DNA of 64,000 bases, from positions 213,466,001-213,530,000 of the forward strand of contig NC_135879.1 of assembly GCF_964194155.1 (NCBI RefSeq), read 5' to 3'. Source of the stretch: Cetorhinus maximus. Lineage: Eukaryota. Of the stretch, positions 43,539-64,000 are shown one piece after another (within the stretch, counting starts at the first letter, position 1; every line of letters begins with the position of its first letter). A program made the position numbers and the translations under genes. The notes below the pieces were generated by a model. It ran no database searches. It was given only the letters and a program-made list of their open reading frames with translations, and had not been told where the DNA came from.

Positions 43539-43628
43539 CACATGCTCTGAAATTTGGGGACTGAGTACACCTGGTACAGTAGATCAGTGGGATACAACAG
43601 GCCTTTACAGCTTTCCTGAGCAAACCAG
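43539..43628 (+). CDS. SMAD2: SMAD2 exon equivalent to human exon 3 (30-aa MH1 insert)
   Basis: Splice context cacag|C...ACCAG|gtgaat; 90 nt, phase 2-2. Translates (S)TCSEIWGLSTPGTVDQWDTTGLYSFPEQT(R), the SMAD2-specific insert absent from SMAD3. Confidence 0.97.
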
Positions 43629-55426: not shown

Positions 55427-55594
<168 letters not shown>

Positions 55595-55651
55595 TAACCA
55601 GCAGTGGAATTAATTGGTTTATCTGTTTTAGCCATCTTGCTTCAACATAAT

Positions 55652-55692
55652 GGTGGGGTGGGGGGTGGGGGTTGGGTGGGGGTGGGGGGAGG
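55652..55692 (+). repeat. G-run tract (potential G-quadruplex)
   Basis: Six runs of three or more G. Confidence 0.75.
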
Positions 55693-56301
55693 TCAAAGCG
55701 AGCACAAAATATTGTATCACAGCAATCCAGTTATTGGAATTTGTAAATTCTGTTCTATAAAATTATATTGGTATTTGTCCATAGTGTATTATTCATGAGG
55801 CAGTTGATATGGCTTTAGAAAGAACAGGTCTTGTCTCTCAAAAATGAATAATGTTACTGGTAAAATAGATGGATCCAAATTGATTTTAAACAACAGAAAA
55901 CAGGTGGTGAGGTGTTTAACAGGGTTGTACTTTTATTCTTTTGTTCTCTGTCCATAAGCGTTAGGGATGTGGATGTGAATCATGTTATAAAATTTGATCT
56001 TTGACAAATGATGCGATTATGCCCCTAATAGAGGCGAGATAGAAAATACTAAACAAGGAGAAGTTATCTAGATGTGATAAATGAGAAGAAGTGCCAGATG
56101 ATATATTGTTAGTAAATTGAACTTTATACTGAATGGATGGGTTTCTGTTGATGTGAAGGAGAAAATAGAAGATTTGGGTGAGACTGAGGCATTGTTGGAC
56201 CAGAGTTGTCACCCAATGAACTTATCACGTAGGCCTAATGTGCAATGCTGTGCTTGACACCGAAAATGTTCCTCTAAATTTGCAATGAACTAGTGTGTAA
56301 G

Positions 56302-57560
56302 GAATCATAAAATGGTTACAGCACAGAAGGATGCCATTTGACCCATCGTGTCCATGCCAATTCTCTGCAAGAGCAGTTCAACTAGTTACACTCATTAATC
56401 CTTTCCCCTCAGCCCTGCAAATCTTTCTCTCTCTGGTTGCTTATCTAATTCCCCTTGAAAGCCAAGATTGAATTCACTTCCACAACACTCTAGCAGTGCA
56501 TTCCTGGTTATAATCAGTCACTGGGTTTGGTGGGGGGGAAAAACAGTTTTCCTCATGTCACCGTTGGTTCTTTTGCTAATCACCTTACATCGGTGGCCTC
56601 TGGTTCTTGCCCCTTTTGCCATTGGGAGCAGTTTATCTCTCTCTATTCTGTTTCGACCCCTCATGATTTTGAATGCCATTATCTGAACCTTCTCTAAGGA
56701 GAACAACTGCACATCCTTCAATTTATCAACTTAACTGAAGTCCTTTATCCCTGGAACCATTCTCCTGAATCTTTTGTGCACCTTCTCGAAAGGCTTCACG
56801 TCCTTCCTGAATTGCAGTGCCCAGAATTGGACTAAGTATTCCAATTGATGCCAAATCAGCATTTTATAAATGTTCTTCATAACTTCCTTGCTTTTGTACT
56901 CCATCTCGTGCACCCCTATAACTACTATCTCAGCCTGCCCTCTCTCGCCTTCAATGACATGTGTACATGTACCCCAGGCCTATCTGTTCCTGGGTCCGTT
57001 TTAGAATTGCACCCTTAAGTTTATATTTCCTCAACTTGCTCTTCCTACCAAAATGTATCACCTAGCCCCCCTCTGTATTAAATTTCATTTGCTACGTGTT
57101 GCTCATTCTGCTGTCCTGTCTGTTGCCTTAAAAACTATCACTATACTCAATACTCACAATACTTCCATTTTTTTTAAAACCTCAAACAAGTTAGTTAAAC
57201 ACTATTTGCCTTTGACAAATTCATGTTGGCTTTCCTGACTTGAATCGTATTTGTCCAAGTTGACCTGTTAATTTTGCCTTGGATTATCTTTTCTCAAAGC
57301 TTTGCCACCATCAAAGTTAAACTGACTGGGCTGCAGTTACTGAGTGCGTCCTTGTACTTTTTTTGTTTTGAACAATAACGTAACATTTGCAGTTCTGAAG
57401 TCCTCTGGCACCACCCCATGTGTCTAAGGAGGATTGGAAGACTGTGGCCAGTATTTCTGGAATTTCCACATTTACGTCCCTCAGCATTTTTTGATGTATC
57501 CCCTCTGATCCTGGTGACTTTTCAACTTTAAGTGTAGCCAGCCTCTCTGATTCCTTACCA
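56302..57560 (-). mobile_element. CR1 fragments
   Basis: EKSPGSEGIH and LEYLVQFW motifs plus the 3' UTR. Confidence 0.85.
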
Positions 57561-57564
57561 TCTC

Positions 57565-57601
57565 CACACACACACACACACACACACCCACACACACACA
57601 C
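57565..57601. repeat. (CA)n microsatellite, one interruption
   Basis: Seen directly. Confidence 0.9.
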
Positions 57602-57614
57602 CCTCCCACCTTTC

Positions 57615-57772
57615 ACAGGATATGGGCATCGGTGGCTAGGCTAGTATTTGTTGCCCATCCTAATTGCCATGAGGTGGCGGCAGCGAGCCACCGCCTTGAA
57701 CCACTGCAATCCATATGGCGTAGGTACACCCACGGAGCTGTTAGGTAGGGAGTTCCAGGATTTTGACCCAAT
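57615..57772 (-). mobile_element. LINE family B tail
   Basis: GSKSWNSLPNSSVGVPTP motif. Confidence 0.8.
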
Positions 57773-58020
57773 TTTGGAACAACTTTGACAGCATCTGTTG
57801 CAATCTCCGTAGAGACCCATAACCTTAAAAAAAATCAAACTTCCAGTTGACCTGACAAAATTTCCTGTGATAAATCCAGTTAATATATAAAACAAATTAA
57901 ATAAACATCAGAAATACTGGTGAAAATGCAGTTGTAAATTGACCCTATTACTGCAAGTGGATTTGATCACTTCAATAATTTGGCTTTATGGCTAGGATGA
58001 CATCTGTCTCATTTTAATAG

Positions 58021-58095
58021 AAACACCACCACCTGGCTATATCAGTGAAGATGGGGAGACAAGTGATCAACAAATGAACCAAAGTATGGATACAG
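58021..58095 (+). CDS. SMAD2: SMAD2 exon 6 equivalent (linker, PY motif)
   Basis: aatag|AA...ACAG|gtgagt; 75 nt. Translates (E)[24 protein letters not shown], with the PPxY motif and the TP phosphosite. Confidence 0.97.
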
Positions 58096-58549
58096 GTGAG
58101 TTTTTTTTTCTTGAAGAGCATGTGGTATATTGGTGAATTTACATTGAATCGTGGAACTTTTAATTGGTTTGCTGTTGGAATAGGATTTTGTATAGAGGAA
58201 GCTAGAGACTGATGTACTGTTAACTTTAAAGAAAATGTTTTGACTAATTCAATAACTTATTTGGCGCTCTGAAAGCAAGATTAGCATTAAATGGCACAGA
58301 TTTTTTTGCTAACAAGAAATTTATACTGAAAGTGAAGGAATTTCAACCTATAAATTACACATTTAGAATGAGCATTTTTTTTGCTCGCTTCAGAGTGAAT
58401 GCAAAAGAGGAGCTTATAGTACAAACTGAGGAAAATTTAGCTTAAAATCCTCAAATGCAATCTATAATGAATAGCAAAGCAATACATTAATTGTATATTC
58501 TGTGCAATTGCTTTTTTTAAATAAAGAAGTCACTTATTTATTTCTTTAG

Positions 58550-58603
58550 GGTCTCCTGCAGAAATGTCACCAAGTACCTTGTCGCCAGTCAATCATAGCT
58601 TGG
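58550..58603 (+). CDS. SMAD2: SMAD2 exon 7 equivalent (linker SP phosphosites)
   Basis: tttag|GG...TTGG|gtaagt; 54 nt. Translates (G)SPAEMSPSTLSPVNHSL with three SP sites. Confidence 0.97.
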
Positions 58604-58657
58604 GTAAGTGGACATTCTTTAAAAAAAGCTTTGTATTAAAAAGAGTTATTAACTTGG

Positions 58658-59800
58658 TTTTTTTTTACTTGTTCTTGGGTTGGGAGCATTGCTGGCAAAA
58701 CCAGCACTTATTGAGCATTCCTAATTGCCCATGGAAGTAGGTGAGCTGCCTGCTTGAACTGCTGTTGTCCATGTGTTGTAAGTACGCCTACAGTACTGTT
58801 AAAGGAGGGAGTTCCAGGATGTTGTCCGAGCAGCAATAAAGGAAAAGCGATGTAAGTTCCAAATCAGGATGGTGCGAGACCTGGACAGCAATTGCAGATG
58901 ATGGTGTTCCCATGTGTCTGCTGCCTATGGTCTTTCTGGATGGTAGAAGTCACGTGATTGGAAGGTGCTTTCGAATGAGTCTTTGTAAGTTGTTGCACTG
59001 AATCTTGTAGATGGTACACGCTGCTGCCACTTTACGTTGGCGGTGGAAGAGTGAATGTTTAATGTGGTGGATGGGGTGCCAGTCAAGCAGGCTGCTTTGC
59101 CCTGAATGGTGTTGAACTTCTTTGGTATTGTTGGAGCCGCACTCATCCAGGCAAGCGGAGAGTATTCAATCGCACTCTTGACTTGTAGATGGTTGACAGG
59201 TTTTGGGGAGCCAGGAGGTTACTCATTGCAGAAATGCCAGCCTCTGCTCTGTTTCTTTAGCCACAGTATTAATACGGCTGATCCAGTTCACTTTCTGGTC
59301 AGTGGTAATTCCCAGGATATTGATTGTGGGATTTCAGTGATGATAGTGTTGTTGAACAAGGGGAAGTAGTTGGATTATCTCTTATTGGAGATGGTAATTG
59401 CCTGGCACTTGTGTGGCACAAATGTCAATTGTTATGTATCAGCCCATGCCTGGATGTTGTCCAGGTCTTGCTGCATGTGGGCAGTACCTGTTCAGTTACA
59501 AATAGTATTGAACGATGTGCAATCATCAGCAAACTCTGCAACTTCTGACCTTATGATGAAGGGAAGGTCATTGAAGCAGCTGAAGATGGTTGGGCCTAGG
59601 ACACTACTGTGTCACTCCTGCAGTGATCTCCTGGGGCTGAGATGATGGCCTCCAACAATCACAACCAGCTTACTTTGTGCTATGTATGATTCTAGCCAGT
59701 GGAGAATTTTCCCTCTGATTCCCTTTAACTTCAGTTTTGTTGGACTCCTTGACGCCACATTGGGTCAAATGTTGACTTGGATGTTAAGAGCAGTCACACC
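58658..59800 (-). mobile_element. LINE family B 3' portion
   Basis: Reverse-complement homology to ~460-1610. Confidence 0.87.
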
Positions 59801-59947
59801 CCCTTTACCAGAGGTTAAAATACATCCACATCTTGGTCATCATGTAACTGCTTGGGTTGTAATTATTTGAACCACTGGAATTATGTGAAGTCTTTGTCAT
59901 GAAAATGAACGATCAATGAAAAGGAGAGATTGATGAATCTTGACTGA

Positions 59948-60046
59948 GGCTCTGAAGAAGTCATATGGGCTCAGTGTTAACTGTTTCTCACTCCACAGAT
60001 GCTGCCAGATCTGCTGAGTTTTTCCAGAATTTTCTGTTTTTATTTG
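59948..60046 (+). mobile_element. PLE terminal repeat fragment
   Basis: ctgaagaagtc..gttaactgtttctc..gctgccagatctgctgagtttttccag. Confidence 0.7.
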
Positions 60047-60519
60047 ATTGGTGAAACTTCAGTCTCAAATACTACAAAGTATTCATTGGCATATAATATC
60101 ATCCAGAAATAATCTATTTTCAATAAATGTAAGATCTCTAAGGTCCAATTAGCAACACAAGTTTTGGTTCAAAAATAAGCTCAATATATTGCATCTCCGT
60201 TGTATAACATCTTTGAACTCCTAGAAAACTCTTGCTCCTGTGCGAGGTCTATCATTCTATACTCATGACGACTGCATAGATTCTTTGGTGGTGTTGCCTG
60301 GCTGTAGAAGACCACAAGTTGTAGCTGGTTTAAGAAAAAGAGCTGTCCTGCTAAAATTTAGCCTAAGGAGAGCTTCAGTGGCGTAAATTGATGTGCCTAT
60401 ATACCGTACCCAACCTGATCTCTTGGATAAGGGCGTGGGAGGGAATTTTGGAATCTATATTTAAAGATGAAATTACAAAATATCCATCTAGATAAACAGA
60501 AAATATTAAAAGTTTCCAA

Positions 60520-61035
60520 TGCAGAGTATTGAGAAAGGGCAGCTATGCTTCATCAACCTAATGGAGTTCTTTTGACACTAGTGATATGATGGAAATGCAC
60601 TATGTATTGAATGTGGATTTTAGGCAAGCTCCAACAAGGTAGCATACGTGATATAGGTTAATAGGTATGAAAAATAGGGGGCGTTTAAAAGAAATTGTTT
60701 CCTTGTTTCTAACTGGTTTTTAAATCCATTGATAACCTGGCATATGCAATTTCTGAGGCTAATTAGAAGTGCTTCACACAGTTCTGTTCGAGGGTCCCTT
60801 TTCGCTGTTGCATCATGAATTTGGATATTGGATGCGAGGGAATGGCCCAAATTTGCAAGTGCTCGTAAAATAGGGGCATTTATAAATAATTCTGAGAGCA
60901 AAAGGAAACAGTATTTTTCTAAAATGGAGAAATGGACAAAGCAGTTGCAGGTGGAATTCAATGCCAATAATTGTGTTTTTTTTTTGCTTAAAGATTAATT
61001 TTACATTGGAGAAAGGCTAGGTGATGTGGAAGTGA
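60520..61035 (+). mobile_element. Old CR1 RT fragment
   Basis: Degenerate NLMEFF, DFRQA and W..QLQVEFN motifs. Confidence 0.5.
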
Positions 61036-61264
61036 AAAAGACAGGTCATAAAAACAGCACCTCATGGAAAAGTTCTGTTTGTTATACATAGGTTTGTGTA
61101 CAAGTTTTGTCCTTTATGATCCATTTATCATTCGATAGGCACTTTCTCCCAAGTCAAGTTAAGCTCGCTCTTGTTCCCATTTGGAACTTTAATTTAGGTC
61201 AGTTTACCCACTAGATATTAATTGAAAAGTGAGCAATAGATTAGTCTTGAATGATTAGTGAACT

Positions 61265-61712
61265 GTAGAAGCAACAAAGAACTTGCATTGAAATGGTGCT
61301 TTTCGCAACTGTAGGATGAATCTAAATTTGCTTCACAGCCAATGAAGTACTATTGAAGTGCAGTTAACAGTTGTAATGGAGCAGAATTTGAAGCCAGTTT
61401 GTGCATTGCACAATGGAGATAAATAGTCAGCCAATCTGATTTGGTGTTTTAAGAGGCAAGCATTGGCCAGGACACTGGGAGAATTGTCTGTTCTTCAAAT
61501 AATGCCACGAACATTCAAGGCCACCTCAAAGGACAGTTGGGACCTTGGTTTTACATCTCAACTAAAAGATGGCACCTTAGACAAATGACCAACACTCCTT
61601 TAGTATTGCACTGAAGTGTCTACCCAGATTATATGCTGAAGTCTCAAGAGTGGTTTTGAACTTGTGCACTCCTGACTCAGGTGAGCGTGCTACCTCTAAG
61701 CAAATCTGACAT
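61265..61712 (-). mobile_element. DeuSINE-like SINE, near full length
   Basis: Tail aagaacttgcat..cacagccaatgaagtac; core ttggccaggacactgggagaa..aaagatggcacct; tRNA-like head. Confidence 0.75.
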
Positions 61713-62235
61713 GGTGGATGATTCCCTTCATTTATGCTATTCAGCTTAGCTGATTTTCAATTCACCTGTACGTATGTGGGTCAGATGTTGGCCCCTACTT
61801 TGATCACCTGAAAGCACTAGATTTAAAGTACCATTTAGCACATCTTATCACTACTTTGTTAATATTTTGTAACAATGTTTTATGACAGTCAATTAAACTG
61901 GTTGCAGTGGCATGTTGGTATGTATGAGTGTGTCCTGTTTGCTAGTTAGATTAATTTGGCTTTGCTTTAAGACAGATGCTGCCTTGTACTGAACAGCCAC
62001 AATCCTATCCAAGCAGATAGATAAATGTAGTATGACAGGACTTGCCTATAATGTATGAAAAAAATTCTTGCGTCTGCATGTATTTGTTGTCTGCGCTGCA
62101 TGGTTTGTTGACATTTTTGTGTCTCATTCTGTCCAATTTTTCACGATTTCACAATTTTCTAATGTTTCATTTGGAACTTGTCACATTGTAATTACACATT
62201 CTGACCATGGTCGCATATGAATCAAATCCCTCAAG

Positions 62236-62284
62236 AACCTCTGTCTTCAGTCACCAAGTTGTTTTTCTTGAGCTAAAGCTTGAG
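62236..62284 (+). other. Candidate poison (premature-stop) cassette exon of SMAD2
   Basis: First AG after a 195-nt AG-free tract; branch-like TTCTAAT and TTCTGAC upstream; donor GAG|GTAAGT; TAA at 62274-62276 in frame with exon 7. No transcript evidence available. Confidence 0.45.
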
Positions 62285-62359
62285 GTAAGTAGCTTTTTTT
62301 AAAAAAAATTAAAAGTAGAAGTAAGATATATTTTACAAATAGTCAATTGGTTGTATAGA

Positions 62360-63225
62360 ACTTGGAGTATTGCTGAAAAAGGAGACCATGCTGTCTAAGC
62401 TTTTCATCTTGGACTCATCAGGTCAGATTCGCAAGAATACCAAATCTAAAGGGAACAGCAGTTTATACTGCATGAGGAGTGTGTGCTAATTGGCTGGCAA
62501 GAGGACTCTAATTGATAGAGGCATTGCCATGGAGAATGTACCAGGGAACAGTTAACTGCCAAGCTTTTGTTTAAATTCAAACCAGGCAGGCTGACTCTGG
62601 TCAAGGCATTGCCATGGGGAGTGAACCAGGGACTAGCTGTCCCTCAAGCTTTTGCTTAGTTGAAAAAGGTGCAAAGCATGGATATGCTCTTTGTTTGCAA
62701 AGGACAGGGCTCTAGAATATATGTAGCTTTTAGCAGATGTAAGTGAGCCATACTGCAAGTCTGACCATCTTAAATTGGTTGTCAGTGCAATTCTTAGCGC
62801 AGTCAGGATTGTTTGCAAGTGTTGACCAATCGCATGATCACATCTAACATTGGACACTGTTCTGAGTTTTGCAAGCACAGGCTGTTCGAATACAGTCAGT
62901 ACTTTGCCTGTTGCAAACAGCTGAAGAATCGTGCTGTTTGATTCGATCCATCATTTGTTTGAACATACAGCCTACGTAACTGGCATCACACTGGCACTGA
63001 AATTCATGTACCACATTACTCATTTATAAGAGGCAGAATGTTTTTTTGGCTTTATGGCAATGTCCTGTTATTGGAGAATACCACTTGTGTTGCTACTGCA
63101 CAATAACAGTGTGAAACAGCTGGCTTCACCTGTTGCTCAAATATTTGAGGCACCTGGCCCTTCCAGGGTAATTTGAGAGAGACTGGACACTTTTCAGGAC
63201 CAGAAGTGACAGTCCTTTTCAAGTA
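62360..63225 (-). mobile_element. Penelope-like element 3' end (GIY-YIG remnant plus hammerhead)
   Basis: GPEKCPVSLKLPWKG, VVHEFQCQCDASYVG and HAIGQHL; homologous to 36000-36395. Confidence 0.85.
62392..62425 (-). ncRNA. Minimal hammerhead ribozyme motif, second family
   Basis: Minus strand reads TGAC-CTGATGA-GTCCAAGAT-GAAA-AGCT-TA-GACA, with a palindromic helix III loop. Confidence 0.6.
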
Positions 63226-64000
63226 AGTGTTTTTACTAAATGTTTCTGTATACATTGTCCCCTATTGTCTGCCTTAATGCCCAAGCTCTAGTGTGAATGC
63301 TGTTATATTTTGGATTAGAACTGTCAAAAAAGACACTTCTCAGCATGGGCTTTATTGACGAGTTAAAGGTTCATCAGTACAACAGACAGTCTGTTTACAG
63401 ATTGACACTATCTTCAACAGATGAAAAAGAACAGACCATACTTTACTGATCCAAGAGTTAAGAAATGTCTGTTAACCAAACCAATTCTATCTTGCATGCA
63501 TGCTTCTAGAGATGTATTAATCGGGGATGTGCTCAAAACTGTACCTTAGGCCTTAGGCACATGTGATACAGGGTCATGTAATGGATACATGTGCCAAAGT
63601 TAAAAGCAATTCCATATGAGAAACTAATGAGTAAATAATATACCTTGTCTATAATTTGGTTAATGAGCAAATATATATCTACCTACAGTTAACAAAATCA
63701 GTACAATTTTATCCTGTTATCTTATCAAACAGAACTTCCTGCAGTTAATTACAGTTCAGTAAAGTAACTTTCTGACCATAAACAGTTAATTATTCAACCA
63801 AGTGAATTTTCGGATCAGAACCCTCGTTTTAATTCTGTATTGTTTCAGTATCTTGAATATATAGTCCAGTGTTATTTGTACATTTTACTACGTGAATTCT
63901 ATATTCCAAATTTTGGGACGTTTGGAAGTGGGAACTGACCCAATGATAATGCTGAAAAGAAAATGTATATACACAAGATCTGGAGAGCAACTTTGTTTCA

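Follow-up and report, generated by a model that had tools for sequence, protein, structure and literature searches.

A candidate poison exon with a predicted distant branch point in intron 7 of shark SMAD2

SMAD2 is a dose-sensitive relay of TGF-β, activin and Nodal signals, and the locus described here raises the question of whether its seventh intron harbours an exon whose inclusion would remove the message. The window, by which we mean the whole 64,000-nucleotide stretch of Cetorhinus maximus DNA that was analysed, carries exons 3–7 of SMAD2 on its + strand, as judged from translation and splice sites, and the exon peptides are closest, among the matches listed, to shark and ray proteins. 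Exons 8–11 lie downstream of the window in the same 4.0-Gb genome, and intron 7 is 33 kb long (58604–91674). A preliminary description had placed a candidate regulated poison exon between the linker and MH2 regions; the region concerned lies inside intron 7, 3.4–3.7 kb 3' of exon 7 (Table 1). It is a single-copy island of ~550 nt with repeats on either side: in a search of the shark genome, both 62030–62300 and 61780–62050 matched themselves alone, which bears out its description as non-repeat DNA, and a repeat begins at ~62325, 3' of the candidate donor. A repeat origin for the stretch itself was rejected, as a second copy is absent from the genome in this self-comparison, which a very old element could escape.

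At the heart of the candidate is the AG-free tract, bounded by the AGs at 62037–38 and 62234–35; at 195 nt it exceeds every other such gap on the window's + strand. This gap, the TGCATG motifs at 62075 and 62097, and the GAG/GTAAGT donor with its exon end at 62284 had all been reported beforehand, and all stand. The reported AGs at 62234 and 62249 are likewise present, but three more (62257, 62271 and 62277) had been missed; five AGs thus separate the tract from the donor and define candidate exons of 49, 34, 26, 12 and 6 nt. All five acceptors lead to a premature stop, with either exon 8 or exon 9 next, and an in-frame microexon was rejected because the 12- and 6-nt options run into a stop too. 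Exon 7 joined to the two main acceptors (62234 and 62249) reads EPLSSVTKLFFLS* and VTKLFFLS* (asterisk, stop), and both readings end, as had been claimed, at the TAA at 62274–76. That this stop lies upstream of later junctions also proved correct, the distance from the TAA to the last junction being 8 + 213 + 138 + 145 = 504 nt. Judged by consensus alone, the candidate segment is flanked by acceptors at 62233–35 (AAG) and 62248–50 (CAG) and by the donor; the first acceptor is without a local pyrimidine tract. By the published definition, the AG-exclusion zone measures 196 for an exon start at 62236 and only 14 for a start at 62251. A structured RNA was also sought: there are no Rfam matches at E ≤ 1 across 58000–64000, and the folding z-score of +0.38 denotes no unusually stable fold.

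Table 1. Features of the candidate region and of the flanking SMAD2 exons (positions are those of the window; window-equivalent positions continue its numbering downstream)
Feature	Position	Strand	Basis or remark
SMAD2 exon 6 (linker, PPPGY)	58021..58095	+	translation and splice sites
54-nt SMAD2 exon 7 with a phase 1 end; donor would pair with candidate exon	58550..58603	+	
AG-free tract, 195 nt, 41% T, 16% G; candidate AG-exclusion zone	62039..62233	+	
TGCATG, RBFOX consensus site 1	62075..62080	+	unchanged in relative B
TGCATG, RBFOX consensus site 2, 9 nt 5' of predicted branch A	62097..62102	+	
TTGAC, predicted distant branch point, A62111, 124 nt 5' of first AG	62108..62112	+	inferred
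U-rich tract immediately 3' of predicted branch point	62113..62156	+	
TTCTAAT, alternative branch-like motif	62157..62163	+	
TTCTGAC, alternative branch-like motif, 31 nt 5' of first AG	62199..62205	+	pyrimidine share 0.52, without tract
First AG past tract (AAG), predicted acceptor by the scanning rule (PMC1431707, available part), 49-nt exon	62234..62235	+	
Second AG (CAG), alternative acceptor with a short local pyrimidine tract, 34-nt exon, same frame	62249..62250	+	
Candidate poison exon of 49 nt, or of 34 nt with a start at 62251	62236..62284	+	sequence anatomy
TAA, in frame after exon 7	62274..62276	+	unchanged in relative B
Consensus donor GAG/GTAAGT, exon end 62284	62282..62290	+	unchanged in relative B
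ATTAAA, weak poly(A)-signal-like hexamer, 24 nt 3' of donor	62308..62313	+	
SMAD2 exon 8	window-equivalent 91675-91887		downstream of window, own genome
SMAD2 exon 9	window-equivalent 102587-102724		downstream of window, own genome
SMAD2 exon 10	window-equivalent 104870-105014		downstream of window, own genome
SMAD2 exon 11	window-equivalent about 110601		downstream of window, own genome

The position of the branch point is where our reading departs from the preliminary description, which had nominated TTCTAAT at 62157 and TTCTGAC at 62199. Both motifs are present, but branch-like YTRAY motifs occur at chance level (three seen against 2.8 expected), and branching at these motifs would leave the 195-nt AG-free zone unneeded; TTCTGAC, at a normal distance and lacking a pyrimidine tract, would need no long zone. 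The TTGAC at 62108, with the U-rich tract behind it, fits better. It sits 70 nt into the AG-free zone, and, among seven branch-like candidates, its A62111 ties with A62126 for the highest downstream pyrimidine share (0.71 over 45 nt), a level also reached by 844 of 14,914 genomic YTRAY motifs. The two TGCATG sites lie 36 and 14 nt 5' of A62111. A NOVA-type cluster of YCAY motifs was considered as well and discarded (six seen, 6.4 expected).

From this anatomy, we propose, with a probability of roughly 45%, that the locus is a low-inclusion poison exon in SMAD2 intron 7 that employs a distant branch point and is repressed by RBFOX beside it. U2 would use the branch at about A62111, backed by the U-rich tract, and from there the spliceosome would scan on through the AG-free zone to the first AG at 62234–35; the CAG at 62249–50, in the same frame, may compete, lying 15 nt from the first AG and so just beyond the 12-nt competition range given in the available part of PMC1431707. 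The 3' end of the exon would be set by the consensus donor at 62284. RBFOX bound to the two UGCAUG elements would block recognition of the branch point, such that the exon would be skipped at high RBFOX and would leak in at low RBFOX, with degradation of the transcript to follow. We infer the 49-nt exon and the skipping at high RBFOX because the TGCATG pair lies just 5' of A62111 and because, at calcitonin exon 4, Fox bound to a UGCAUG beside the branch point blocks SF1 (PMC2777236, available part). Were the exon used, its UAA, ~500 nt 5' of the last junction, would be expected to trigger nonsense-mediated decay under the 50-nt rule (PMC11632617, available part), and any transcripts escaping decay would encode an MH1-plus-linker protein without MH2.

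Several characterized exons may be set beside the candidate. In the accessible text of Gooding et al. 2006 (PMC1431707), exons with large AG-exclusion zones (AGEZ), such as α-tropomyosin exon 3 and PTB exon 11, have their branch motif, followed by a pyrimidine tract, towards the 5' end of the zone, an order that the predicted parts of the candidate follow too; as in the candidate, the zone exceeds 150 nt, regulatory motifs lie inside it and the first AG is the acceptor, in the candidate a predicted one. Those exons are confirmed by transcripts, whereas the candidate exon is putative; moreover, skipping of PTB exon 11 causes decay, whereas for the candidate it is inclusion that would do so. Cassette splicing was observed in 32.5% of cases at an AGEZ of at least 150, compared with 19.8% overall (PMC1431707), the available part of that report leaving unaddressed a zone in open intron as the mark of an exon. 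An upstream (U)GCAUG represses calcitonin exon 4 and F1-γ exon 9, according to the sections at hand of PMC2777236 and PMC10835012, and the candidate likewise has this element in its upstream intron. Those exons are coding or terminal and have their branch points near, whereas the putative RBFOX sites of the candidate, 139–161 nt before the exon, are sensible only with a distant branch point.

The human gene provides a further comparison in its cryptic poison exon 5b (chr18:47,868,052-47,868,097, 46 nt; Margasyuk et al. 2024, PMC11632617), for which the available part of the report gives a testis PSI of up to 0.262 and a slight rise under cycloheximide. It is like the candidate in belonging to the same gene, in being short (46 against 49 or 34 nt), in bringing a linker stop before MH2 and in its low baseline inclusion, which for the candidate is the expectation. 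Exon 5b was found in conserved sequence and demonstrated by reads and qPCR, whereas the candidate is known from sequence and displays no excess conservation (see below). Furthermore, 5b falls in the intron that separates exons 5 and 6, and the candidate in that separating exons 7 and 8; since the introns differ, the candidate is not an orthologue of 5b. A simple donor scan of shark intron 5 (55581–58020) for a counterpart of 5b gave three weak hits in two places, none of them clear. The same intron contains a 123-nt AG-free gap at 57066, without a donor.

The preliminary remark that no such exon is annotated holds for intron 7 in the tables searched, but a human SMAD2 poison exon, that of intron 5, has been published. 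We found no SMAD2 intron-7 exon in the literature and supplementary tables searched, VastDB, GENCODE and bioRxiv supplements being outside this scope. As far as their available portions go, the human and mouse tables give SMAD2 exon 3, a 5'UTR exon and exon 5b and no intron-7 exon, brain and neuron tables give exon 3 and the 5'UTR exon (PMC13078869), the supplements of PMC7347940 are without a SMAD2 row, and 12 of the 15 files of PMC5989265 hold one Smad2 cassette row, its exon unassigned. SMAD2 is alternatively spliced across vertebrates, as seen from the accessible text of PMC11063908 and from database isoforms. The frame is kept in the delta-exon-3 form (PMC11063908) and in the isoforms lacking exon 8 or exon 9, whereas inclusion of the candidate would truncate the protein.

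How unusual the arrangement is was gauged against 87 stretches of the shark's own genome (1,111,800 bases; with both strands, 2,223,600 strand-bases or 2.22 Mb), a non-random sample composed of round-number places together with the SMAD2 and paralog loci, the candidate included. Among 386 AG/GTRAG donors, that of the candidate has the longest AG-free zone upstream (195 nt; the next is 88 and the median 30), and it is the only one with an AG-free zone of at least 100 nt ending no more than 110 nt upstream. Conversely, only one of the 395 AG-free tracts of at least 100 nt has an AG/GTRAG donor within 110 nt, and only one contains two TGCATG motifs; in both cases, this is the candidate tract. By comparison, the real acceptors of SMAD2 exons 4–10 have AG-free zones of 19–49 nt. 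The combination of signals in the candidate is therefore an outlier in its own genome, although its parts are weaker when taken singly. AG-free tracts of at least 195 nt number 27 in the 2.22 Mb, four of which are complex and not C-rich, long tracts of this kind being mostly C-rich or of low complexity; two TGCATG motifs occur within 250 nt upstream of three of the 386 strong donors; base shuffles of the tract were without AG in 3 of 20,000 cases (P 0.00015); and two TGCATG were seen where 0.29 were expected (P 0.029, 5,000 dinucleotide shuffles). Multiplied by hand (0.26 tracts per 64-kb strand × 0.019 for the donor × 0.03 for the TGCATG pair), the joint chance is ~1.5 in 10,000 windows, for a set of features that was chosen after the fact. 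Rarity alone leaves the odds of a real exon near even, because the features were chosen afterwards and because real unannotated exons with the full set are, by our estimate, rare too.

The sole relative compared (relative B) is ~3% diverged and is represented by one contig, of depth 3.6, spanning 61691–62335. We counted 21 substitutions (20 of them listed) and four indels over the aligned stretch. The listed changes introduce no new AG into the tract and leave the donor, the TAA, the two main AGs (62234 and 62249), the TTGAC and both TGCATG motifs untouched; a single change moves the minor AG, that at 62277, by one base. Thus, the donor, the AG-free tract and the TGCATG motifs, for which an alignment to relatives had been suggested, are kept in this one species, but the substitution rate is neutral: positions 62039–62290 carry eight substitutions in 252 nt (3.2%), against 7.9 expected and 3.1% in flanking contigs (Fisher P = 1.0), and three fall in the 57 nt around the candidate exon. 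The 75-nt core from the TGCATG sites to the branch point has no changes where 2.4 would be expected (P 0.095, for a window chosen afterwards), and neutral drift would retain all of the signals with a probability of about 0.2–0.27 (0.50–0.66 × 0.40). Because relative B changes there at the neutral rate, the candidate block is, on this alignment, no conserved (or ultraconserved) block, and such divergence weighs against a deeply conserved switch. The splicing switch originally envisaged survives in part: its anatomy stands out in the genome and agrees with that of a poison exon whose branch point is distant, but excess conservation is absent from relative B. Beyond this species, a search of metagenome contigs for distant orthologues with a degenerate exon-7-donor pattern returned three matches, all three of them non-SMAD chance hits. 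The matching intron of SMAD3 is without a counterpart of the candidate, and three SMAD1/5/9-type paralogs also have none up to 30 kb 5' of the matching exon. Sensitive blastn with 62001–62320 against SMAD3 and the three SMAD1/5/9-type loci gave short hits only, the best of which (E 0.002) falls in a different SMAD3 intron, with two more at E 0.069 in one paralog (C1); on reading, none has an AG-free zone with a donor, and they were set aside.

The neutral rate across the block is what would be expected of a pseudoexon, i.e. old, T-rich and AG-poor intron DNA in which a donor and two TGCATG motifs have arisen by chance and which is spliced at noise level. We consider this explanation quite possible. 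The chance-level branch motifs and the want of a paralog counterpart agree with it, as does the occurrence of ten complex AG-free tracts of at least 170 nt in the 2.22 Mb; moreover, with very many windows examined, rare coincidences get reported. The predicted peptide, too, was found in none of 370 proteins, 251 of which include the end of exon 7; these comprise the best 120 of 588, the best 120 of 217, 58 of 58 and up to 15 listed members per cluster for two clusters. However, protein annotation seldom includes the targets of decay, and since the clusters are moreover listed in part, the missing peptide is weak counter-evidence. A looser peptide match in a bird model proved to be an intron-derived stretch. 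Among the sequencing runs listed as containing 62000–62330, none is on record as RNA, and the one run presumed to be RNA (11 million letters) matched repeat pieces alone within 57900–64000 and nothing over 61690–62345, a result without bearing on expression. What a pseudoexon accounts for poorly is the joint chance calculated above, the functional order of the parts and the retention of all of the signals in relative B.

The same signals might also be bound by the spliceosome without yielding an included exon, serving instead as a decoy or as a recursive site that slows or relays the removal of the 33-kb intron 7 and thereby controls its retention; decoy and recursive splice sites are established concepts. 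Here, a perfect donor stands directly 3' of an AG (GAG/GTAAGT), and, together with the extended 3' region, this donor could keep U1 and U2 bound while ligation stays inefficient; intron retention is, in the available part of PMC11632617, common near conserved cryptic poison exons. Against this, the AG at the donor is a GAG, with four further AGs in the preceding 50 nt, and would make a poor ratchet acceptor, and we regard the explanation as improbable. Less probable still, and in our view very much so, is an alternative last exon, terminated at the ATTAAA at 62308 and yielding a stable, MH2-less SMAD2 message not subject to decay. The hexamer lies 24 nt past the donor, no listed change falls there in relative B, and the human RefSeq SMAD2 protein of 263 aa does end in unrelated sequence after exon 6; on the other hand, ATTAAA is the weaker hexamer, is located in a T/A run adjoining a repeat and follows directly 3' of a consensus donor, and U1 binding at a donor usually suppresses cleavage just downstream.

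A distant-branch-point poison exon remains our preferred reading, and a broader version of it may be entertained, in which a real RBFOX-gated exon of this type has been kept across sharks and rays, sets the dose of SMAD2 by tissue and arose separately from human 5b; we judge this to be rather unlikely. If it were true, muscle and neurons, being rich in RBFOX, would keep TGF-β/activin output high and other tissues would throttle it, the RBFOX splicing programme of muscle and neurons would be tied directly to the level of SMAD2, and, because the intron differs from that of human testis exon 5b, control of SMAD2 by unproductive splicing would have evolved twice. As this kind of element is well known and a human SMAD2 poison exon is already published, the gain would be one well-specified new case and no new principle.

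A number of other observations on SMAD2 splicing were made along the way. A second AG-free tract in intron 7 (window-equivalent 64071–64187, 117 nt), 1.8 kb downstream, has one TGCATG and no donor behind it. Among the matches listed, 30 of the 251 proteins join exon 7 directly to exon 9, an in-frame skip of exon 8, which is the first MH2 exon; these models come from birds, mammals, amphibians and teleosts and correspond to an isoform with a damaged MH2, and a widespread exon-8-skipping SMAD2 isoform was not met in the literature examined. Exon 9 is skipped, also in frame, in the sawfish and zebra-shark models; in the present genome, a TGCATG lies 197 nt upstream of this exon, and an AG-free gap of 99 nt begins at 102272. 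The MH2-less human RefSeq form departs after exon 6, in a different intron from the candidate, and songbird models contain an extra ~20 residues, in frame, between exons 6 and 7. Exon 3, which is known to be alternatively spliced, is located at 43539–43628 in the window, with two GCATG motifs 225 and 257 nt upstream.
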